Assembly: GCA_044892505.1 (NCBI GenBank)
Contig: CM097882.1
Location: 161,200,001 to 161,264,000 of the forward strand
Origin: Schmidtea nova
Taxonomy: Eukaryota
Direction of reading: 5' to 3'
Length of the DNA: 64,000 nt
The notes below the pieces were generated by a model that ran no database searches, was not told the DNA's origin, and saw only the letters and a program-made list of their open reading frames with translations. The position numbers and the translations under genes are program-made. This document shows positions 1 through 64,000 of the stretch, piece by piece (position 1 is the first letter of the stretch; each line of letters begins with the position of its first letter).

Positions 1-1473
1 TCCACAACATCCACATCCTTTACTCTTTCTAAGCATGCATATTTGTCTTGTCTGTGATCTGGTCATTATTCTCCTTTCCTCTGGTTCTTTTGTCGCAGTT
101 TTTTCTACTCGTTTAAATCTACACACGTTCACGTATATCGGTCGAACTAACGGATTGTTGACTAATTTTACCCGGATGTTATTTTCGCTAACAAATATGA
201 CTTCATATGGTCCTTTTCCCGTTCTCTGTAATTTTTTCGCTGTTCCTGGGATGATTTCCGGTGTTTCGACTATCACCCAATCGCCTAGCTTGAACTGATG
301 TTCGTGTACATTTCTCTTTTTGTCGTGTAGTTCTTTGTAGCTCTCTTGATTGAATCGTATATTCATACCTGCAACTTTCCAAATTTCTTGCATTCGCTCC
401 TTGAATTTTGTTACGTAATCGTCGATTTCCATATATTGTGATATTGGTGGTTGATATTCAAGATCCATTGGCATGTTACATTCTCTGCCGTACATCAATT
501 TAAACGGACTCATTTTTGTTGCCGAGTGAATCGACATACGGTATGCCATTAGACATAGATTCACATATTCATCCCAATCCTTTTGGTGTTTACTGACATA
601 ATTTGACATCATCTCAATCAATATTCCGTTAAATCTCTCCGTTTGTCCATTTGTTTGGGGATGATATGGTGAAGTTCTCAACTTAGCAATTCTGAAATAA
701 TTGGTAACTTCGTTGATGATCTCGCTCATAAAATTTGTTCCTTGATCGGTTAATATTTGTTTTGGTGTTCCATATCTACAACATATTTCTTCGACTAATA
801 TTTTGGCTATTGTTCTAGCTTTCTGATCTGGCATTGCAAATGCTTCTGGGAATTTTGTTAAGTAATCAGTTATTACTAATATATAAACATTTCCATGATT
901 CGTTTCTGGTAATGGTCCTACTACATCCATTGCGATCATTGTCATAGGTTCTGGTGGAATTGGCATTGGTTTTAAAGGTGTTTTCATTTTACTGCCAGTG
1001 CTTTTTCGCGTTGCACATATTAAACAATTCCTAATCCATTCTTTCACATCTTCTCCAATATTTGGCCAGAAATACTTCTGTTTTAATCTCGCTTCCGTTT
1101 TCTTAGCTGACATATGTCCACCAAGTTTTCCATCGTGGTATTGCATCAAGATGTCTTTCCTTCTACTTTCTGGTAAACACATGAGTCTTTTTTCTCCATC
1201 CATTGCTAATAACCAGCCTTTTTCGATTGTATATTTGTGCCTGTTTTTCTCCATATGTTCCTTTAGTTGGCTGTTATGATCAAAGATTTTCATATCATTC
1301 CTATTCAAATATTCGATGATTAGTTTTAGCTCCTCATCTTCATTTTGTTCTTGTTGTAGTTTAGTGAAATCAATATCTTCTGCGATTATCATACATATTC
1401 GCCTGACATCTTTATCCATTAGTTCCTCAAACATAAATCTTGACATGCAATCCGCATTTGCATTCGCTTTCCC
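1..1473 (-). CDS. pol: pol C-terminal part: end of RNase H plus integrase; in frame after a premature TAA and open to the window edge
   Basis: My translation gives GKANANADCMSR, the HHCC zinc motif (YHDGKLGGH...WIRNCLIC), IAMDVVGP, LTDQGTNF, SPYHPQTNGQTERFN and GPY. It is absent from the ORF track because it has no stop in the window. Confidence 0.93.
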
Positions 1474-3609
1474 TTACTTGAACTTTATATATGGCGAATA
1501 TTCTTGTAGCTGCATTGCCCATCTCATTAATCTGCTTGACGCTTCTTTGTGCTGGCCTAACCATACTAACGGTTGATGATCTGTTGTGATGTATATTTCG
1601 TGACCCCATAATAGATATTTGAAATGTTTAATCGCCTGAATGATTGCTAGCGCTTCTCTTTCCGTTACCGAGTAATTCTTCTCGTGTTTTCGAAAGGTTT
1701 TGCTGTAATATCCTATCACTCTTTCTCTCCCATCTTCATCCCATTGTCCTAGTACGGCTCCTGACGCGTATCCACTTGCGTCGGTTGCTAATAGAAATGG
1801 TTTTTTGAAGTCTGGGTGTACTAATATTGGCGATGAAATTAACTTATCTCGCAACTCTTCAAATGCATTTTGTTGCTCTCTTTCCCAGATAAATGGTGTA
1901 TCTTTCTTGACTAGCTCTTGTACAGGCTTTGCAATTCCGGCATAGTTTTTAATAAATTTCCGATAATAACCACATAGTCCTAAAAATTCTTGTACTTGGG
2001 TTATGGTTTTCGGTATAGGACAATTTTTTATCTTTTCGATATTTCTTGGGTCCGGCTCTTTTCCTTTAGCTGATACAATGTGACCCAAAAAGGTAACTTT
2101 TGGTTTTGCCCAATCACATTTTGATGGTTTCAATTTTAATTTCCATTGCCTTAATCGGATGAATACGTTTTGGATATCTTGTAAATGTTGTTCAAACGTA
2201 CCCGAGTAAATCAATAAATCATCAATATATACCATACATTGTTTTATCCCGTGAGTTACAAAATTCATGCATCTTTGAAATGACGCAGGTGCATTAGTTA
2301 AACCAAATGGCATCTTCTTGAACTGGTACAGATCTTTTCCGATGGTAAACGCTGTTTTCTCTCTGTCCTCTTCTTTCACTTTAATCTGCCAGTAACCGCT
2401 TTTCAAATCTAATGACGTGAAGTATGCTGCACCATGTAATGTTTGTAACATTTCGTTGATATCTGGTAACGGGTATGTATCTCTCTTGGTTACTGCGTTC
2501 AATTGTCGATAATCAATACAAAATCGTTGGGTACCATCTTTCTTTTTTACCATTACTACTGGAAATTGCCATGGTGAACAACTTGGTTCAATCACATCTG
2601 CGTCTAACATCTTTTGCACTTCGGCTTCGGCCACTGCTTTCTGCGCCTCTGCTAGTCGATATGGTCTCAATGTGATCGGTGTTTCGTCTGTTAGGGGAAT
2701 AGTATGTTGAGTTACGTCACTCGTTCCCAAGTCTAAATCTGATGCTGCAAAGATGTCTTTAAATTCTAACAATACTGTTTTTAGTTTTTCTTTTTCAATA
2801 TCGTTTAAAATTTCACTGTCGATTACCCATAACTCTTCCACTTTACTCTCATCCTCTTGAATTTTAGGTAATTCAATATTCATCATCGGGGTTAATTTTC
2901 CCAATCTCTCATTTTCGTAAATGATTTTGTCTTCCTCATCGAAATTGGTGATGTTGATTGGTATTTCGTTTTCTTTATTGACGTTCACTATTTCTCTTGC
3001 CAATGGTAACTCTTTTCTCATCTCAAAATTTTGATTTGGCTCAAATATCATTTCCCCGACTGCCGTGTCTTTTACTTTGGTGAAACATATCATTTGCGTT
3101 CTTCCTGGTACGACAATTTTCTTTGAACACCTTACCTCCGTTTTCATTGAACAGGTTTGTCCGCTTTTATCTTTCAATCTCATCGTACTTAAATCGATAA
3201 CAATCTCCTTTAATAATTCTGGCATTAAATCTGTCCCAATGATACATGAGGCTCCCAATTGTTTTATTACAGCTAAATAAGTAGACATCTCTACATCTTT
3301 ATACTTAATATCTGACCATATTTTCCCAATAACTTTGACTGATTCTTTATTGCACGTGACCACATCCATTGGTGCTTCTTCAATGCAAGGCCATAACATG
3401 CCTGGTATCATATTCATGTTTATTGCTGATATATTTGCACCGGTATCTATCATTGCATCCATTTCAACACCGTTGATTTCAATGGCAATAGTAAGGGTTG
3501 GTCCAGCTGATGTTCTATTGTCATTGTTGCTATTGTCATTGTTTCTAGATTTTTCTCTTCGCTTTGTGGTCTGTTTAGTATTGTTGGGTCTGGTCTGTTT
3601 AGTATTGCC
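1474..3609 (-). CDS. pol: pol: aspartic protease, reverse transcriptase, RNase H (frame open from 3609, first ATG 3462, TAA at 1474-1476)
   Basis: Motifs DTGA (protease), RFCIDYRQLN, LDLKSGYWQ, MPFGLTNAPASFQ, YIDD (RT), and LATDAS / TEREALAII / TDHQPL (RNase H). Confidence 0.97.
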   Translation of the reverse strand, partial: GNTKQTRPNNTKQTTKRREKSRNNDNSNNDNRTSAGPTLTIAIEINGVEMDAMIDTGANISAINMNMIPGMLWPCIEEAPMDVVTCNKESVKVIGKIWSDIKYKDVEMSTYLAVIKQLGASCIIGTDLMPELLKEIVIDLSTMRLKDKSGQTCSMKTEVRCSKKIVVPGRTQMICFTKVKDTAVGEMIFEPNQNFEMRKELPLAREIVNVNKENEIPINITNFDEEDKIIYENERLGKLTPMMNIELPKIQEDESKVEELWVIDSEILNDIEKEKLKTVLLEFKDIFAASDLDLGTSDVTQHTIPLTDETPITLRPYRLAEAQKAVAEAEVQKMLDADVIEPSCSPWQFPVVMVKKKDGTQRFCIDYRQLNAVTKRDTYPLPDINEMLQTLHGAAYFTSLDLKSGYWQIKVKEEDREKTAFTIGKDLYQFKKMPFGLTNAPASFQRCMNFVTHGIKQCMVYIDDLLIYSGTFEQHLQDIQNVFIRLRQWKLKLKPSKCDWAKPKVTFLGHIVSAKGKEPDPRNIEKIKNCPIPKTITQVQEFLGLCGYYRKFIKNYAGIAKPVQELVKKDTPFIWEREQQNAFEELRDKLISSPILVHPDFKKPFLLATDASGYASGAVLGQWDEDGRERVIGYYSKTFRKHEKNYSVTEREALAIIQAIKHFKYLLWGHEIYITTDHQPLVWLGQHKEASSRLMRWAMQLQEYSPYIKFK

Positions 3610-6600
3610 GGGTCAATCATTGCCCAATTTGGTTCGTAATGTGCTGGGTAGAAATTTGGCATTGGTAACATTCGTAGTCCAGCTCGTGTTTTTTCTCTCA
3701 CTGTTCCTGGTCTTTGTGGGTTAGGGTATGTCATTGGTGGTAAATTTTGACCTTCCCATTGTTTTGATTTTTCTGCTTCCCATATTGGTGCGGTACCATT
3801 TGATCCGGAGTTCGTTCCTCCTTGATTTCCTTTGTCATCGTTATCACTATTGTCATCATCCGAATCTTTCCTTCGGTTATCCCACCATCTTTTCCATCCA
3901 CTACGTCTGGTTTCTTTATATTTCGTTTTCTCTGCTTCGTTTTTCATAATGAATCTAAATTTTCTACCGATCTCTTCGTCGGTTCCTTTCATCTTGGTCA
4001 GTATTCCAATTAGCCTCTTTATTCTATGAATGTCTTTTGAATGCCCATGCAATACCATAGTTTTAGCCAAAAACGGTAGGAATCCAAGTGCCATTTTCCA
4101 ATTGATTTGTCTCTCTCTTTTATAGATATCAAAACAAGCTAGCATCTGAGTTATAATAACTCTGACTATTTGAATGATTAGGATTATCCCTAATATTCCT
4201 GCCATCATCTGTCCAAATACTAAGAATCTTCCCCACATGGCTTTCATCATATTATTGGTTGCGTGTTTAAAATGTTCTGGTGACAACAATAACTCGTAGT
4301 TCGGACTTCCCACGAAATTTGTTCCACCGGTTATGGCTATAATATTTGATAATACTGCTTGTCTTTGGGTTGGAAATAGTATATGCTTTCTCGCTGCTTC
4401 TAAATCTGCATCTCTGTACACTCCACTGTGTGAAATATCTATGGGTTTAAATTCTATTTCTGTTGTTAACTCTGTTAATCCAAATCGTTTAGGTGCTGAT
4501 ACAATTTGCCGATTTGGAAAAACTACCCATTTTGCATTTCCCATGTCATACATTGGTCCATACGCATTACTGCAATTGAACTGATGGGGTTCGTAATTTG
4601 GTGGATTTATTATTCTCGTTACTGCTTGTACAAATCGACTTCTTCCCTTGTAGAATATTTCCAATTCGTTAGTACATCGGTTTTCTGGTATTCTTGGTCT
4701 TTCCGGTAGTCTTGCTATCTCTTTTTTGCATTTGTATGTATACATAACTTCTCCCACAATTCGACCAAAATGTCCTTCTTGCAGTGGTAATAGTGGTATT
4801 GCGTTATCTGGATTCGTTATAGCCATTGCTAATTTGGTTCTCAAGATTTCTCTGTTCAATATACAATCGTTTTGTATCAAATCATGATATACTTTCTCTG
4901 TGGTTGCCATACCTCTATGGTATAAGAAATCCATTTTATTATTTGCGTACAAATACGTTTTAATGTCCACTGTATCTGGTTTTGGTGCTGCTTCAGCTAT
5001 CACTGTTGTAGATAGGAAAATTCCTTTGTAATTCGTTTTTATTACTAGTCTTCCGCATTTACTGACGGTTTCACCTTTGATGAATCTCATTCCCACTCCT
5101 GGATCTTTTGATAAAATTGTTGTTGATATAATTGCTGTTGGTGTATTTACTAATTTAAGTTTTTCCGTCGTCTCTTTATGCTGGAATGTTCTTGTTCTTT
5201 TGAGCTGTTCCATTTCTTGTCTGGTTGAATCATCTTTGGGCTCGTCATAAACTTTTCCTAGTATTTCCTCGAATTCAGCTTCTTGTAATAACATTAGTCG
5301 ACATTTATTCGCATCTGCCTTATAAATCAATGTTGATGCACCGGTATTACACGAGGTATGTTCTGCAGAACAACTTGGGAATTTTCTCATTGATAGCGTG
5401 TCTGGATCAAAATATCCCGGATATGTTTCCAATTTCACTTGATACATCTCTATTACTACTACATTGCTGACCACTTTTCCTAATAGAGTGTATGCTCCTC
5501 CTTTACAACTTCCGTCTGGTTTATTGACGTATCCAGCTGCATAAACTCTTGTTATTTTAATTGCTCCTGGTTGGGCAGCTATTATTATGTTTCCTGCTAA
5601 CGATATCCGTTTTGAGGTAAACGCTTCATTGCACTTTTCGCTATCCAATGATATTACTGTTGATTCCATTCCTGGTTCGATAATTGTTGAATATGAATAT
5701 TGTCCACAGTAATACGCGAATAATTTTCTCGTAACCGTGCATTCTCTTATTTCTGCCTTGATGAGGTCTGATTCCTGATACACGTTGTAACTTATTTTAT
5801 TCACAATTTGTTCCAACTTTTTCGGCGTGGCTTGTTTACAATCTTCCGTATCTTTTAATGAATATTTCTCGCTAAGCTCGATTTTGTCACAATCGTATAC
5901 CACAAACGATGTTGCTCCCTTTATGCACATCATCCAAATTAATATTGTGGTCAATATCGCATTCATACTCTTCCCATATGTTCTTTGATCGCGAAAATTC
6001 ATTGATCCTTCGAATTCTGTTAATAATTCTCTCAACTTTACTTGCATGGTTTCCGTTTGATCTATTTTATCTACTGAGTTGATGAATGTTTTCCAACCTC
6101 CTTGTTTCATTACATACGGCTCTATCATTTTTTCAATGATTTCCGTTATTGTGAATATATGACCATTTGAACTGTATCTGGGTGTTCTCCGTTTGTACAA
6201 GACGATCATATTGTACATTAAATATGCCAAGCTTACTAAATATTTTGCTGGTTCGTTCGTATTGTTTGTCAGTTTTTCGATAATTTCTTTCATTTCTGCA
6301 GGATTTCTCAACGTCATTCGTACTTTTCCTTCGATGATTTTTGAGATTATTGGTTTAATCGTTATCCACAGTTGTTTGGCTTCTTGTTGGATATGGTCTC
6401 TTTTTAACGCTCTTTTTATTTCTGGGTTTGCCAATGCAAGCATATCAGATACTAATTCATTTATCCATCGGATTCCTTGTTCGGTTATTGGTGTATTACC
6501 TTTCACTTGATTTGCAACTGACACTAGTTTGCTTACTTTTAGTTGTAATTGTTCCGTCTTGCTTACTGATGTTGGTTTTTGATTCCTTTCTGTTTGATCT

Positions 6601-9600
6601 TTCGCCGGCCTCCCTCTTGGGCGTTTATCTATCGTCGTTCCAACTTCTCGTCTACTTAGCTGATTATTCGCGATTTCTCTCGATGTTGTCGCTCCTCTAT
6701 CTGCGATCCAATTACTCCATTCGTCAGTTGTAGAATTTTCTCTTGCTCGTTTTTGTACTTTTTCTCGGTCGGTTTCATCATCGGTTGCTGTGATTTTTTG
6801 CCGTTTTACCCAAGGAATTCTCTGGTCATCGGTTGTTGTTTCATTTTCTATATTTGAGAATAAATCCCCTGAGTAAAATGCTGTTTCATCGTTTTCTCTA
6901 TTCGCAATATTTGTCAGTTCTTCTAATACGTCTTCATCAGTTGTTTCGACAATAATTTCACTTGCAGCTTCCGGTATTTCTGGTTCGTCTAAGTTTCCGA
7001 ACAATTTTCTCATTTGAGTTCGATTTCCCTCTTTTCTGATTAGTTCATTGCCTGCAATTTTAGAAACAGTTAAATGATTACTTGTTCCGATTCGTATCGG
7101 GGTTACACCAATTTCTATCTCATCATCGAGTGATCTTCCTTCGTACTGTAGATGAAATGGTAATTCAAATGGCAGTTTCTTTTTAATCTCTTTTATTTTC
7201 ATGGTTGCTAATACTTCCATTTCTTCCTTTCCAAAGTCTGGAAAATAGATTTTTAATCCACATTTTTGCGGTTCGTCACTTTCCCATTCCATTTGCCTCC
7301 ATTTTCTTCTAAGCTCATCGAATTGTTCTGGATACCAAGTGTATACTCGTCCATATTCCTCGATTTCCTTCACGAGCATTGTCATGGTTAATCTATCCTT
7401 ACCATTCTCGAGAATCCATTTTGCTAATTCGACTACCGCTCTTCGTTGATTTTTGGCACCCTTTTCTAAAATATCAATTAACTGTCTACTTTTTTGGGCT
7501 TCAGTTCTCTCTAATACTTCAGGGTCCATCAGTTCATCCATATCTACAGGACGTAATCTCGAGGTCGTTTCTTGTTTTCTCAGCACGCTGATTCTGGGAA
7601 TTGTCAGCTTTTCCCTTACGTCTTCCTCAATTTTGCATGAAACATAAATATCTCCTTCACTTTGATATCGAGATTTTTTATCTAATAGCAAGTGTTGCAA
7701 GATAAATTTTGGTGCTCCTGATGCTATATTTTCCTCTTTTCCTGGTTTATGATAGCAGCTGCAGAGCTTTTCTGGATAAATTTCTTCACTATGACCCTTC
7801 TCTGAATTGTAGGATGATCCTATAGACAATGTTACTTTTTGATCGAACGGCCATGTTAATTCCTCGTCATTGATCCCTTTACAGATGATATAAAATAATG
7901 ACGTATGAGTTCCTTTACCAACTCCATCTCCGTTTGGATAAATTCTCATTTTTAATTTATATCCGCCTGGGTAAGTGTAAAATTGTGGGCTTGTCAATCG
8001 TGTTACTTCACCCTCCTTTGCTGCTCTCACTTTATCTGCCCAATTTGAAATTCTCCATTTGAATGGTGCAAGATATTTCTCTTCGCATATGTTCTCGTCG
8101 ACTTCCAAATGTTTCCCAGTTATTTCTGATGGTTCGTAAATCTCATGGGTTTCCTCATATAACAGTTCCTCAGGTATTCGTTCTGGTTCACATGTTACCC
8201 ATCTATCCTCCACATTTGGTTGTTCCCATCTGTATCGATTTTCTAGTTCTATCCATGTCTTTATCCACGGCGTTGGTTTACAATCTCCATAATGAAGAGG
8301 TTTTATTTTCCCCTTTATTTCATTATCCGCTCTCCAAAAATTATATAAATCGATTATCTGGTCTAATTTTCCGACCATTTTTCTTTTAAATCTCCTCACG
8401 TGACCATCGTCTTTCTCTGGTTCGTCCATTGCCCATATTTTAACTGTTTGACCGTCTTCCCAAATACCCAGTTTATATAAGGGTGTCTGATCATCCTTTT
8501 CTAATACATGTTTATTGTACACGATTATTACATCTTCTATTAATCCGTCATCACTATTTTGTTTCACGTTATGCATAATTTTCTCATCGATTATGCGTAT
8601 GAATTCGTCTACCGTACAATCTGGTTCTATTTCAATTGTTTGTTCGTCTCCACTTGGCAACGTTAGATTGACTTTTATCGTTTCCGCTCGATTCTTTGAT
8701 CTCTGATAGCCGCCATATTGACTTATTAATTCGATTGCTCGTTTATCATCTAATCTCACTAACTCGGTATCTCGTACGAACTCTACAAATCTCTTCATTG
8801 ATGCTGGTCTTCTTCTATTTATACTGTCGATCATTTTCCTCGTCTGGTCTATTGCTTGTGTCGAAAGCATTAATCGATTTTCCCATATTGCTTGTTCGGC
8901 CAATTTTAATAATTTTGGTCCGATTTCATAATCGTATCCATCTCCAATTCTTGTCAGTAGTTTCATCACCGTTTCTTCAATCGCGTTCTTCTTTAACGTT
9001 AAGATATTCAACTCGTTCGGCCATATCATAGCATCTACTAGATGTATTCCCTTTTTGATTCGCCAATTATTCAAATAAAGATAATCGTTTTTAAAACTGC
9101 TACCCATTTTCTCTTGCATCCAGTCATATAATGCGTTAGTATTTGGGTCGTTTATTTTTATTCCTAATACATCGATTTCGGGGTGGTGTACTTCTATCGT
9201 ATACTCTTGAGTTGGCGTTTCTTTTAATTGCTTCTTGTATTCCGCTATTGAGTTGTTCCACTCTGCGGTGAATACTTGATTTTCTACCTGATTTGCTTGG
9301 GTGACTTCCTTCATAAACTTCTGATATACTTTTTCATCAATAAACTCCCGATTCTTCATGGCTAATTCAACCTTGCCTGTTACTTCTCCGATGATATTCC
9401 AATCGTCTTCACTTAGCAACGCGTTGCTTGATGTTTCGGTATCACTTTCTTCACTAGCCAAAGGTGCTTCTAAATTGTTGTTTTCCTCACTTGACGGAAA
9501 TAAATCGCCTCCTAAACTACTCACTTCGCTAATCTCGTCTTCTGGATCTGTTTGATCATCATTTCGCATTCTCATCATATTTATTTTATACACATTTTTA

Positions 9601-37641: not shown

Positions 37642-38703
37642 ATGCCTCTGGAAACTATTCAATACCGTAGCATTATTCGCTTTCTTTTCTGAAAGGAAAA
37701 AATAGAGAAGAGGTTCTTTCTGAACTGAAAGCTGTTTACCAACAAGAGTGCCCATCCACAGCAACAATTTATCGTTGGTTCGATTACTTTCAGAGTGGTA
37801 GAACCTCCGTGGTGGACGAAGAAAGATCTGGAAGACCCTCAGAAATTGATGAAAAAATAACGCAAAAGCTGCAGACAATCGTGCAAAACGAGAGAAAAAT
37901 AACGACGAGAGAGCTCACAACCTGTCTAAATGTGAGCAAAAACACTGTGCATACTCTCCTCACTGAAAGTGGTATTCGAAAACTATGTTCCCGTTTTGTG
38001 TCACGCTTCTTAACGGTGGAAATGTGATAACGACGCTTGGAATGCTGCTTGGAGAATCTGCAGATCAGGACCAATGTTGGAGACCGTTTCATTGATAATA
38101 TCATCACTGTGGACGAGACACCGTTGTACCTTTATGTCCCACAATCTAAAAGAGAGCCTGAAGAATGGAAACTGCCAGGAAAAAGCAGCTCACTGAAAAT
38201 TCGGTCCTCAACTTGCCCCCGAAAGGCTCTCATGCTGATGGTGTTTTGGGACGCCAATGGCGTTATTCTGACTGACTTTGCTGAATCCGGCATGAAGATC
38301 AATAGTTCTTACTACTCCAACATCGTGCAGCAAGCAAGGAAGGCACGACGCAAGAGCAGAGTGTGTGATCTCAACTTTTACACGATAATGTTCCCATCCA
38401 CACCAGCAGCGTTTCCATGGCCAAAATTGAGCGTTGCGGGCTCAATTTGCTTCCCCATCCACCATACAGCCCCAATTTGGCTCCCTCCGAATTTTGCTGT
38501 TTAACCATCTTAAGAAGCATCTACGGGGCTATGTGTTTGCCAACAAACATGATTTGAGAGCAGCCGTGGAGAGTTTTCTGGGAGAAAAGCCTCAAGAATT
38601 CTTCAAAAACGCCTCCGAAAATCTCGTTATTTGCTGGGAAAATTGTGTCAGTGCAGAAGAAAATATTTTGAGAAATGATGCCTATTTACCATGCTTGTTC
38701 TAA
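37642..38703 (+). pseudogene. Mariner transposase pseudogene
   Basis: DEERSGRP, ITVDET, LMVFWD, HDN, HPPYSPNLAPS; several frameshifts and stops. Confidence 0.95.
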
Positions 38704-51916: not shown

Positions 51917-52399
51917 ATGCCGGCAGCCGATTTAATGGAAAAATTGACCCAGGTCCGGAATTCAGAAAAAGAGAGCATGGAAAGTAGATGGGCTACCCAA
52001 CTCAAGGAGTTTCCCCCACCGATTTTGCGTACCATTAACGCACAGGTATATAAGTGGCGGCGCGAATTTAATCGAATATGCCCGTTTTCCATCTGGGTTG
52101 GAGGAAAAGATCGAATCATCTACCGGGGAGGGCCGGATTGGCCACTCACAGAGAAAGGCTACTCCAGCAAATTTGGACGACTGATTATCTTGATCCATGA
52201 TGCCGACGAACAGCCATACCGACTCATCTACTGGGGACACATCCCTCGCAAGGAACTGTGCAAGTTAGGATTACAAGCGTTCATACCGCGGAAATCTTTT
52301 GGAAGAGAATGCCAGGATGGACAACCTCCATGGTCATGGGCCCAGCTTAGAAAAATGCCGATTAATCATGAAATGCACAGTCTATTTCGACGACCCTAA
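51917..52399 (+). CDS. Orphan 160-aa protein
   Basis: GC-richer than the flanks; AG acceptor directly before the ATG; AATAAA at ~52431. Confidence 0.65.
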   Translation: MPAADLMEKLTQVRNSEKESMESRWATQLKEFPPPILRTINAQVYKWRREFNRICPFSIWVGGKDRIIYRGGPDWPLTEKGYSSKFGRLIILIHDADEQPYRLIYWGHIPRKELCKLGLQAFIPRKSFGRECQDGQPPWSWAQLRKMPINHEMHSLFRRP

Positions 52400-52559
52400 T
52401 TCTGACGATTTAATAATGATAATTAGTTTAATAAAGATCGTAGTGTTGATTATTTGTCTTTGTTGTATTTTGTCCTGACAATAATTAGTTAATTTTGTAA
52501 TTCTAAATAATGCTTTAACGTAAGAGTAACAAACTATTAAATCTGAATAAATTGCAGAA

Positions 52560-53156
52560 ATGAACCTAGAATCAACGCAGAGAGAACTCGAAAAGATGTG
52601 GCGAATCAGGAGAGCCCAGGATAAGGAGTTGGGCCTTCTCAAAGAACAATTGGCCAAGGCTGAAGCGCAAATCGCCTATTTACGTAAAAGCTGGTTTGCT
52701 CCGGCTCGGATGAAGGAGCAGATCGGGAAGATGGAGCGCGCCCAACGGACAGCGGATGACTACAGAATGGAATGGGAAGCTACGAAAATCGAGCTTCGTA
52801 AGTGCCTGCATTCGGTAACAGCTTCCTACATCGAACGGGAGCTAAAGGACCAAATCCGACCGGTAACCTACCAGGAATGGACGGCGGAGAAAAAATTGGG
52901 AACTTCAATAGGCACGGACGTCGACGGTCTCATCAAAACCAGCAACGAACCAACTCCATCAATCAACCTTACCACTCAAATCGTCAGTACCCATCAGAAA
53001 CGCAAACGCATAGAACAGAAAAGTCGTCGACAAAGAAAGCTGTTTGCCCAAAAGCTGCAGAATCAAATCGAAGCTCTGCACAAATTATCTGAGGAAGAAT
53101 TACTAAACGAAGTATTTCCCCCAGAAGGAATTTTTAGCAGTGCAATAGACAAATAA
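52560..53156 (+). CDS. Orphan 198-aa coiled-coil protein with basic NLS-like stretch
   Basis: Heptad-like N-half, KRKR...KSRRQRK; CAG acceptor 1 nt before the ATG; AATAAA downstream. Confidence 0.7.
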   Translation: MNLESTQRELEKMWRIRRAQDKELGLLKEQLAKAEAQIAYLRKSWFAPARMKEQIGKMERAQRTADDYRMEWEATKIELRKCLHSVTASYIERELKDQIRPVTYQEWTAEKKLGTSIGTDVDGLIKTSNEPTPSINLTTQIVSTHQKRKRIEQKSRRQRKLFAQKLQNQIEALHKLSEEELLNEVFPPEGIFSSAIDK

Positions 53157-58497: not shown

Positions 58498-59060
58498 TCA
58501 AACAAAACTATTTTCGCTTGTCAATATTCTCACTGATATTAATTTGTCCTTATTTTCTGTTTGACATTGGTGAAGATGTCTATATACAGATGACTTTCCA
58601 CCAGGATCAAGATGTTCTTTAATTCTCTGATGCAAAGTCCGAAGGGTGCTTCCGATGTAAATTTCTTCGCATTTATTACACATGATGCTATAGACAATGT
58701 TCTTGCAAAAGCATATTTTCTTTGGTGTTTCACAATTTCCCATCTTACATGTATTTTCCTTTCTCGTGTTGTTAGCCAGGGCTTGCCTCAATGTCTTAGA
58801 TCTATGTGCCAAACGAATCGTAAGACCAGTGAGATTAAATTCTTTGATGATCATAAAATTAATTCGGTCATTGATGAAAGGAATTTGAAGGTAGAAATAT
58901 TTTTTTTCCTTTTGGGGGTCTTTCTGCCTTCTCTGGTTGAATTTATTTTTGTTAATCTCGTTAATATTATGGTATCCATTACGATTCAGGACTTCAGTAA
59001 ATATTCTTTGTTGTACTGAATTGTCCTCTTCCTTTATGCATCGATTAGCTATCCTTTATT
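58498..59060 (-). mobile_element. Penelope-like element 3' fragment (GIY-YIG endonuclease)
   Basis: VLNRNGY...LQIPFI upstream in frame, then NIVYSIMCNKCEEIYIGSTLRTLHQRIKEH. Confidence 0.88.
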
Positions 59061-61584: not shown

Positions 61585-62001
61585 TTAATGTCGGCTTCGC
61601 CTGCGGCGACGACGTCGTCGTCTTCTACGTGATAGACTGGCAATCGATCGCCGTCTAGTTCTGCTAGATCTCCTGCTACTCCGACTTCGACTTCTACGTC
61701 TCCTACGTCTGGATTCATGTCGCTTAGAATCTATATCGGCTTCGGCATTTGACGTATTCATATTGGAATAATTCTGATAACCAATACTAGAACTTATAGG
61801 CCCATCACCTAGCTGAAATGGATTGATTTCAATTGGTGAATTATTGTTGCTTCCAGTCATCAATGACTTAGAAACTAATCTTCTTTTGACAATAGTTCTT
61901 CGTTTTTTACTACTCAAATGATCTCTTCGGCGCCTTCTAACAATTATTTTCTTCGGCTTTTTTGCTTTCAGAGAACTGCTTAAAGACTGCGATATAGCCA
62001 T
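61585..62001 (-). CDS. Protamine-like / Arg-Ser-rich basic nuclear protein
   Basis: Single 138-aa ORF with basic N- and C-termini (poly-Arg, RS dipeptides) around a neutral linker. Confidence 0.7.
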   Translation of the reverse strand: MAISQSLSSSLKAKKPKKIIVRRRRRDHLSSKKRRTIVKRRLVSKSLMTGSNNNSPIEINPFQLGDGPISSSIGYQNYSNMNTSNAEADIDSKRHESRRRRRRSRSRSSRRSSRTRRRSIASLSRRRRRRRRRRRSRH

Positions 62002-64000
62002 GGTGTTTAATTTTAAATTTAAAATATTATTAATAAATCATTAATCAATTTGAATTTCAAATGTTGCCTAGGATTTTATTATTCAATTAGAAAAATTAAA
62101 TAACTGTCGAAATTTATTTATTGTTGATATTTATTGTTTTAAAAAGTTTTCATTTTAATAATTTGTTAAAAATATTAATGGCAGCTGTTAAAGAACAAAT
62201 TGGCTGACCTATTGGGTGAACTATAATTTTCTATTATAAATATTTATTTTGAACGATTTCGATATCAAATAAAAACTATTAAAGGAAAATTTAGGTTGTA
62301 TAATGGAAACAAAATTTGCAATTGCTTTAAGTAAGTGCATCAAATAAGACTATTTGTAGGATAGAAAGAAATTAAATACACACAAACACAACTTATAAGG
62401 CAATTGCCGTCCCTTGGGAATCAAACACGCAATAAATACAATCCTTATTTTACATGACAGTCTTGAATATTAGACCTTCTGAACATTCGGATGGTCTTTT
62501 ATTTGACACTCACTTTTCTAATGATTACCACAAAGCCTTCAAAAAATATTTTTGGACGATCTTAGGCTTATTTTATATTTTCCAAATATTAATTTTTTCA
62601 AATCTTGTGATTAGTTTTTTAATTTAATTCGTGGGTCTGACTGAATTGACTCAAAAGTTGGTAATGCTGGTTGCTGAGGATACCTAAATAATAAATTAAA
62701 TATCATCACAAATAAATAAAATGGACAGGGTAAAGGATGAGATATTTTGAAATTCGGAGAAAGAGGAAGGAAGAGCAAAACATGAGAAATGAGACGATAG
62801 CGAAACAAAAGAAAACGAACAATTAGCTAGAAAAGATCATTCCTAATTAAGAAATGCAAAAAGGCAAAAGGAATTTCGAAATCGAAAAACAAAACAAGAA
62901 GAAAAATTATATCATAGCAGCTTGTCAGAGATATTAGGATTGCAGGAGAAAATATTCGGAATAACAAAAAAGAAAAGCAGGGCCTATCTCGACAGCTGTC
63001 AGAGATAAGGCAGGAATTGTGAAGAATGCAAAAAGCAAAAATGAAAAAAAAAATTATTTCAAGTACCACAAATTTGAGGAGCTATAAAATGGAAAGCCGC
63101 AGTAGTGGAATTAGAAGAGTTATTAGAAGAAATGTATTGAGAGGAATTTTAGATTAACAGAAATTTGAATTGAAGAAAGAGATAGTGTGAAACGAAAGAA
63201 AATCTGTGGAGAAAATTGACATTGAGAAGAATCAAAGTGTTTTATTAAAAACGTGGATCAAAAGAGAATTTAAGAAGAATCTAGTGAATTTAAAGAACCC
63301 AGAAATTAATTGAATAAAAGAGTCGAAGTTTATTAAGTCAGTTTTTCAAGTAGAAGCAAAAAAAGCAATTAGTCAGTTACCCATTGTTGAATCTAAATCA
63401 GTAGCTAGTGATCGATAGACGGAGATAGTATACACGAGTGCTATTCCTCACAGAGTGCTGTAAAAAGCACTGTCGTATTATTGATTGGTCGTACTTGTAT
63501 AATTGTGAAACCATTTGTGATAATAATAAAGGTTAATGTTGTTAATCGTTATTTTATTGATCAATAAAGCAAGCTTTTAAGTCAGAGATTTGCTTCATAA
63601 TCTTTAAACTTCACCAACGACCAATGACCCAACATGGTTATGGAAATTATTCTCTATTGTATTTTGTTGAATAAATGAAAACATATTTGAATAACTTATA
63701 TTCGAATAGATCGACACTAAATATTAATCAAAAGCTTCAATATGCATATGTATGTAAGAGTGTACACCATATAACAATAAATACCACTTTCTATAATACT
63801 AGTTGGTGTGTATGGCACTGATTATTTAGTGGTTTATTTGATATCGAGTAAGTAATTTTAATAATAATTATTTGATTATCGTTTTAACATAATTTTGTAG
63901 ATATTTTTATTACTGTTTTCTGATTTATTATTACATTTAAAATAAGTAATTAATACTTGAAGCAAATTTATTTTAATTAAATTTATCATAAGAAATTTCT

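Follow-up and report, generated by a model that had tools for sequence, protein, structure and literature searches.

A giant Burro1-like Ty3/gypsy element of Schmidtea nova with a chuvirus-type class III Env in frame between Gag and Pol and a candidate second membrane protein behind integrase

Introduction

Burro1/GYPSM1 of the planarian Schmidtea mediterranea is a giant long terminal repeat (LTR) element whose single polyprotein of 4,873 aa contains three CCHC knuckles, MATH and Bcl-2-like domains and ankyrin repeats, with env placed between BCL2 and the protease (PR). According to Arkhipova and Yushenova (2019, PMC6431247), the Burro env matches mononegavirus glycoproteins and is the first case of an env lying in frame between gag and pol. 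The subject of this article is a Burro1-like Ty3/gypsy retrotransposon of Schmidtea nova, found in a stretch of 64,000 nucleotides (assembly GCA_044892505.1, contig CM097882.1, positions 161,200,001 to 161,264,000), which is called here the window. The element lies on the minus strand, extends past the start of the window and has a whole length of about 29.4 kb.

The window element was set against Burro1/GYPSM1 by description, not by sequence. In giant size (about 30 kb with multi-kb LTRs in Burro), the two are alike, as the S. nova element measures 29.4 kb and has LTRs of 3.87 kb. A single polyprotein of about 4,900 aa, with env between the BCL2-like domain and PR, is present in sister copies (about 4,890 aa, counted from the gag Met) and broken in the window copy. 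Both elements also have three CCHC knuckles, MATH and ankyrin repeats. The domain scans performed here did not detect three further parts of Burro1, namely a dUTPase-like domain, a BIR domain in the leader open reading frame (ORF) and a ubiquitin-like domain between MATH and BCL-2. Conversely, section 7 of PMC6431247, which describes Burro1, makes no mention of a signal peptide behind integrase, fibronectin type III (FN3) repeats, a second transmembrane helix or a deleted subfamily.

Elements of the GAG-ENV-POL type, described as errantiviruses with a gB-type class III ENV, occur in Platyhelminthes, Nematoda and Bryozoa according to the available passages of Chary and Hayashi (eLife, PMC13524379), where six of them are listed from S. 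mediterranea and Sacco 2022 is cited for the nematodes. In the part of that work at hand, Smed_errantivirus_6 is, by eye, the closest of the six S. mediterranea rows to the window env, while Smed_errantivirus_1 matches a second S. nova lineage introduced below. The words 'polyprotein', 'in-frame' and 'fused' are absent from its main text, and neither a processing model nor a second membrane protein appears in these passages. The same glycoprotein family, with a class III fold model, includes the chuvirus (Monjiviricetes) glycoproteins (PF24664) and the Anakin elements of the BEL/Pao group, as far as the accessible parts of PMC12440569 and PMC13524379 show. Database relatives are mostly stand-alone proteins of about 650 aa, whereas here the glycoprotein is internal to a Ty3/gypsy polyprotein.

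The position of env in frame between gag and pol is therefore already published, both for Burro (PMC6431247) and for GAG-ENV-POL elements (PMC13524379), and the novelty implied by the initial annotation of this locus does not hold. Taken alone, the arrangement flagged there adds one family and a confirmation at the level of the fold.

Env is read in one frame with Gag and Pol

In the window copy, the minus-strand ORF at 3450..11780 is a single frame of 2,776 aa which runs from gag through env. PR, reverse transcriptase (RT) and RNase H (RH) are in a different frame at 3612-1474, and integrase (IN) is at 1473-1, all on the minus strand. The 1.25-Gb genome was searched with a 601-nt probe, which gave 288 candidates; 40 of them were scored, all being 99-100% identical. 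The window copy and 29 of these 40 make up the 30 copies compared below.

The Bcl-2-like domain and the start of env share one frame in all 30 copies, and the env transmembrane helix and PR do so in 29, the sole exception being the window copy. A common frame also joins the gag Met to the env start in 27 of the 29 copies in which both landmarks were found, and gag to RT in 26/28. When nine copies were fetched through pol, six contained a single frame of 4,941-5,001 aa. By hand count, frames of at least 4,900 aa hold 47 of the best 150 matches among 1,517 candidates.

The break seen in the window copy is its own. Its frameshift is absent in 9/9 aligned sister copies, so no programmed frameshift is involved, and intact copies encode Gag-Env-Pol as one chain. 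A stop codon between RNase H and integrase is equally private, and contigs of 4/4 runs differ from the window copy at both places. The window copy is young and broken twice. The earlier view of env as a segment fused in frame to Gag, between gag and pol, is thus borne out, and so is that of Pol as an extension of the Env tail, as the sister copies continue directly in frame without a frameshift. Env is, however, not the C-terminus of the first ORF, as had been proposed, because in intact sisters the frame runs on into pol. The parts of the polyprotein found in the window, from the N-terminus onwards, are the following:

11037..11480, minus: gag start (first gag Met at 11480) and capsid domain (PF03732, E 1.3e-5)
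10443..10670, minus: three CCHC zinc knuckles (PF00098; three motifs counted in a sister copy)
8430..8690, minus: possible ubiquitin-like domain, weak (ubiquitin-fold matches below threshold)
7629..8063, minus: MATH/TRAF domain (PF22486, E 1.2e-23)
6051..6560, minus: Bcl-2-like helical domain, weak (PF00452, E 0.075, under the cut-off)
5907..5975, minus: predicted internal signal-like segment, SP1 (hydropathy peak; same place before the env start in relatives)
4209..5906, minus: env ectodomain, modelled as a chuvirus-type class III fusogen, 566 aa with 14 Cys (PF24664, fold model)
4149..4208, minus: predicted env transmembrane helix, TM1 (hydropathy)
3529..4148, minus: env cytoplasmic tail and low-complexity linker to protease (PR in frame in 29/30 copies)
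3516..3528, minus: frameshift private to the window copy
3214..3489, minus: aspartic protease (PF13975/PF00077)
2074..2550, minus: reverse transcriptase core (PF00078, E 3.4e-37)
1498..1887, minus: RNase H (PF17917, PF17919)
1474..1476, minus: stop codon private to the window copy, where sister copies read on without it
1..1173, minus: integrase (PF17921, PF00665)

The Bcl-2 part that the initial annotation had placed before env stands only in part. A weak match recurs just ahead of the signal-like segment, with PF00452 values of 2e-4 and 1e-3 in the second lineage and 1e-3 in the public relative P0009, but every match remains under the cut-off.

The layout recurs in a second lineage and in public relatives

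The family search of the genome revealed a second lineage, whose env is about 33% identical to that of the window family. The gag knuckles and the env start are in one frame in 10/10 fetched copies of this lineage, and seven of the ten contain a single frame of 3,393-3,401 aa reaching from gag to the second transmembrane helix (TM2). The layout of signal, ectodomain and transmembrane helix is likewise present there after integrase.

Among public proteins, 911 match env at E 0.001 or better. Fourteen long relatives were scanned, and in ten of them the chain that contains env goes on into PR and/or RT. A CCHC knuckle precedes env in 6/13 long relatives. Three of 13 (P0006, P0010 and P0017) reach past integrase, and all three have a second signal-like segment; P0006 and P0010 show the signal, ectodomain and transmembrane layout there, while in P0017 the second signal is followed by a different Cys-rich domain. 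Most of the remaining public matches are stand-alone proteins of about 650 aa at 20-28% identity. In an RT-RH tree of nine rows, the window element, both subfamilies of the second lineage, P0006, P0010 and P0013 are grouped with support 96/97, and P0017 and P0020 lie outside.

Two side observations concern these relatives. Two or three aspartic-protease-like domains per polyprotein occur in P0006, P0007, P0008, P0012 and P0018, one of those in P0006 being located after integrase. Behind the polyprotein of the second lineage, there is an extra ORF of 470-480 aa (L042:7324-8775, plus strand), in which a DEDD exonuclease-like motif can be recognised by eye.

Env is modelled as a chuvirus-type class III fusogen under purifying selection

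Env matches the Pfam family PF24664, 'Monjiviricetes fusion' (viral fusion glycoprotein), at E 1.3e-69. A model of 5906-4260 has a predicted local distance difference test score (pLDDT) of 89.5 and contains a central helix of 48 residues. Its best match in BFVD is the G protein of Tacheng tick virus 4 (TM-score 0.73, E 1.5e-35); against the PDB, every listed row is herpesvirus gB (best E 3.7e-13), and the 11 highest rows in VIA are class III fusogens. The cysteines of env are conserved with those of free-living viral glycoproteins. At the level of the model, env is a chuvirus-type class III fusogen, as had been suggested from its first residues, and the fusogen fold on which that suggestion depended is predicted. 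The signal-like segment, Cys-rich ectodomain and transmembrane helix noticed earlier were located as listed above, and a signal-like segment precedes env in 6/6 compared proteins.

Variation among the copies points to constraint. Shared variants of the env ectodomain in the 30 copies are 0 nonsynonymous and 6 synonymous, and singletons are 6 nonsynonymous and 19 synonymous. When subfamilies A and B of the second lineage are compared, the env ectodomain is 85% identical in amino acids with a proportion of synonymous differences (pS) of 0.73, meaning that synonymous sites are near saturation, as compared to 88% identity for capsid and 92% for RT. As judged from these sequences, env is under purifying selection and about as constrained as capsid between subfamilies. 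A separate feature of the ectodomain is an in-frame length difference of 15 nt at 5110-5128, by which the window copy differs from 9/9 aligned sisters.

A candidate second membrane protein behind integrase

Beyond the window start, the frame of the window family extends by another 1,070 aa (L001:6791-10000, minus strand; protein P0004). Integrase is followed by ankyrin repeats and another signal-like segment (SP2), and then by four repeats, a Thr-rich stalk, a second predicted transmembrane helix (TM2) and a Tyr-bearing tail. The feature in question is:

L001:6791-8730, minus: SP2, four FN3-like repeats with Cys, TM2 and a tail containing several Tyr (same frame as integrase and the ankyrin repeats, which come before it)

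The four repeats are about 90 aa each and have four invariant Cys in common. One of them, modelled from a four-row alignment, forms a beta-sandwich with pLDDT 76. In a Foldseek comparison of this model with the PDB, FN3 domains or scaffolds derived from FN3 make up the listed matches (best E 1.6e-3, TM-scores of 0.4-0.6), and when the repeat profile was compared with PDB sequences, all 9 of 9 matches contained FN3. The Pfam fn3 model gives 25.8 bits for the whole protein versus a cut-off of 25, with no single stretch significant. This evidence is consistent but weak, and the repeats are likely to be fibronectin-like. In the eight full-length copies covering the region, shared variants are 6 nonsynonymous and 0 synonymous, which is too few to interpret. 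Such a membrane protein behind integrase was not found in the literature searched, and Grohme 2018 and Lee 2026 (Dev Cell) may already note it.

A deleted subfamily retains the candidate second membrane protein

Frames of 1,345-1,368 aa hold 39 of the same best 150 matches (hand count; 1,517 candidates). Sixteen short-frame copies were fetched, 14 from this class and two shorter (L061-L075, L080). All 16 have a common deletion, from the leader (about 11,900-12,000) to the middle of integrase (about 918), so that gag, env, PR, RT and RH are missing and a frame of about 1,350 aa ending in the FN3-like membrane protein is left. The deletion joint is also present in contigs of runs X1 and X4. In two deleted copies that were checked, the LTRs are 100% and 99.98% identical and are flanked by 4-bp duplications, which indicates that these two moved recently.

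Of the shared variants in the FN3-like region of this subfamily, 8 are nonsynonymous and 24 synonymous (pN/pS, the ratio of nonsynonymous to synonymous polymorphism per site, 0.08). The integrase remnant appears equally constrained (pN/pS 0.06), and recombination with full-length copies could therefore be a part-cause of the low values. The young deleted subfamily appears to keep its FN3-like part under purifying selection, to which recombination could contribute. Together with the FN3-like protein, this subfamily offers a handle on a possible infectivity of Burro elements and on the role of their surface proteins in planarians, in whose stem cells Burro1 is reported to be expressed (PMC8532177, seen in excerpt).

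A four-pass polyprotein and the alternatives to it

Polyproteins of alphaviruses and flaviviruses are threaded through the membrane by internal signals and stop-transfer helices, are cut by host signal peptidase and a viral protease, and yield two type I proteins per chain. These viruses differ from the present element in their class II fusogens, their RNA replicase and the lack of integration, and the likeness is one of mechanism, with no homology expected. We propose, with a probability of roughly three in four, that env, gag and pol in one frame of about 4,900 aa form a four-pass polyprotein of the endoplasmic reticulum (ER), cut by signal peptidase and by the element's protease. An alphavirus-like topology had already been suggested in the initial annotation, and that mechanism is plausible. 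What supports the present reading is that the domains follow one another in a single frame in the order given above, that env is modelled with a class III fold and shows purifying selection, and that four hydrophobic segments occupy alternating signal and anchor positions along the polyprotein.

According to this model, Gag and its cargo (MATH and Bcl-2-like) would be made in the cytosol. SP1 would then insert in the ER, and signal peptidase would free the N-terminus of Env; SP1 would remain at the C-terminus of the upstream part, directly after the weakly matched Bcl-2-like domain, and hold that part in the membrane. With transfer stopped by TM1, synthesis of PR-RT-RH-IN-ankyrin would continue in the cytosol as an extension of the Env tail, and the protease encoded in the element would cut these parts free. 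Transfer would start again at SP2, and the product would be a type I membrane protein with FN3-like repeats and with TM2 as its anchor. Env most likely acts as a fusogen on enveloped particles, and the FN3-like protein may serve in attachment or at the cell surface. If the topology is true, a retroelement particle would be made of parts in fixed 1:1 ratios, all derived from one polyprotein threaded through the membrane, unlike the particles of retroviruses and errantiviruses.

A broader and more tentative idea, which we consider possible but doubtful, is that the clade of these elements combines a class III fusogen with a fast-changing FN3-type attachment or receptor-mimic protein in a four-pass, flavivirus-like arrangement, and that defective satellites without gag, env and RT are selected to keep the latter. 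A two-component entry apparatus of this kind in a retrotransposon was not found in the literature searched.

Several observations weigh against the proposed topology or the parts of it. A 1:1 ratio of Gag, Env and Pol is unlike that of retroviruses. SP1 of the window family is moderately hydrophobic, below the stricter hydropathy threshold and weaker than in relatives, and the -3/-1 small-residue test is not discriminating, as genuine transmembrane helices also pass it. P0006 has a weak TM2, and that of P0017 is unclear. The FN3 matches lie below significance both at the Pfam domain level and at a Foldseek E of 0.001. Glycosylation sequons are enriched in just one of six second ectodomains (P 0.028), and that of the window family has 1 sequon versus 3.4 expected. 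The second ectodomains have no significant similarity across the lineages compared, and the four-repeat profile finds no significant match in those of other lineages (best independent E 0.55). Finally, the 30 copies were chosen as best matches to 5700-6300 of the window, which biases variation there downwards.

The stoichiometry problem would disappear if, in spite of a real single frame, spliced or internally started subgenomic RNAs were the main source of Env, Pol or the FN3-like protein, with the polyprotein as a minor product. Drosophila errantiviruses provide the model for such expression, and in the deleted subfamily the C-terminal part of the polyprotein indeed stands alone as a long frame of its own. 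Nevertheless, frames are continuous on both sides of env across lineages of about 30-40% identity, which splicing would not require, and the junction in the deleted subfamily is diverged, without a clean splice joint; we consider this explanation unlikely. It is also improbable, in our estimate, that the topology is as proposed while Env acts away from virions, in cell-cell fusion, direct cell-to-cell passage or partly in host use together with the anti-apoptotic cargo. Burro1 is said second-hand to benefit planarian stem cells through an IAP-like ORF (PMC13465017, seen in excerpt); in addition, no particles are reported in the literature passages considered. Against such a role, Env is constrained like capsid in a mobile multi-copy element, and it has conserved cysteines in common with free-living viral glycoproteins. 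This constraint fits selection on transmission, by whatever route. As for the gag-env-pol order being an assembly chimera or a one-off rearrangement, the two lesions of the window copy might hint at it, but the same order and frame recur in 30/30 copies, in the second lineage, in public relatives and in the literature, so that its chance appears negligible. The chimera reading was rejected on the in-frame joining of the Bcl-2-like domain and env start in 30/30 copies; against the separation of gag from env that the initial annotation had named as a warning sign stand the 27 of 29 copies in which the gag Met and the env start share a frame. The four-pass polyprotein remains the preferred reading.

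Structure of the element and its leader

The order PR-RT-RH-IN fits Ty3/gypsy (Metaviridae), and a TG...CA LTR pair with a 4-bp target-site duplication is as expected for this group. The 3' LTR is located outside the window, past its start, and was found with neighbouring genome stretches. The LTR pair is 99.74% identical, which suggests a young insertion. The features of this part are:

17098..20964, minus: 5' LTR, TG...CA, about 3.87 kb (LTRs 99.74% identical over 3,869 columns)
17070..17087, minus: primer-binding-site-like stretch, 10 nt inside the LTR end (from the sequence)
13997..14377, minus: accessory RING-finger ORF in the leader, IAP-type RING (PF13920, E 5.6e-14)

The primer-binding-site-like stretch presumably resembles the 3' end of tRNA-Pro. 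A purine tract directly before the 3' LTR was found neither in the window element nor in the two deleted copies checked. In all three, the flank inside the 3' LTR loosely mirrors the primer-binding side (17070-17097) as an inverted repeat. A Pfam scan of the leader RING ORF detected no BIR domain. The leader also contains a tandem array at 12570-13030 with units of about 21 nt, the length of which varies among copies. A 760-bp stretch at 22557-23316 is repeated on the opposite side of the element at 97% identity.

Other features of the window

Outside the element, a second RING-like ORF at 27615-27980 (minus strand) resembles an IAP C-terminus by eye. A mariner-like transposase fragment at 38031-38504 (plus) and a GIY-YIG/Penelope-like fragment at 58498-59055 (minus) were also recognised by eye. 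Two unassigned ORFs are present at 51917-53156 (plus), and a basic ORF rich in Arg and Ser, again judged by eye, occupies 61585-62037 (minus).

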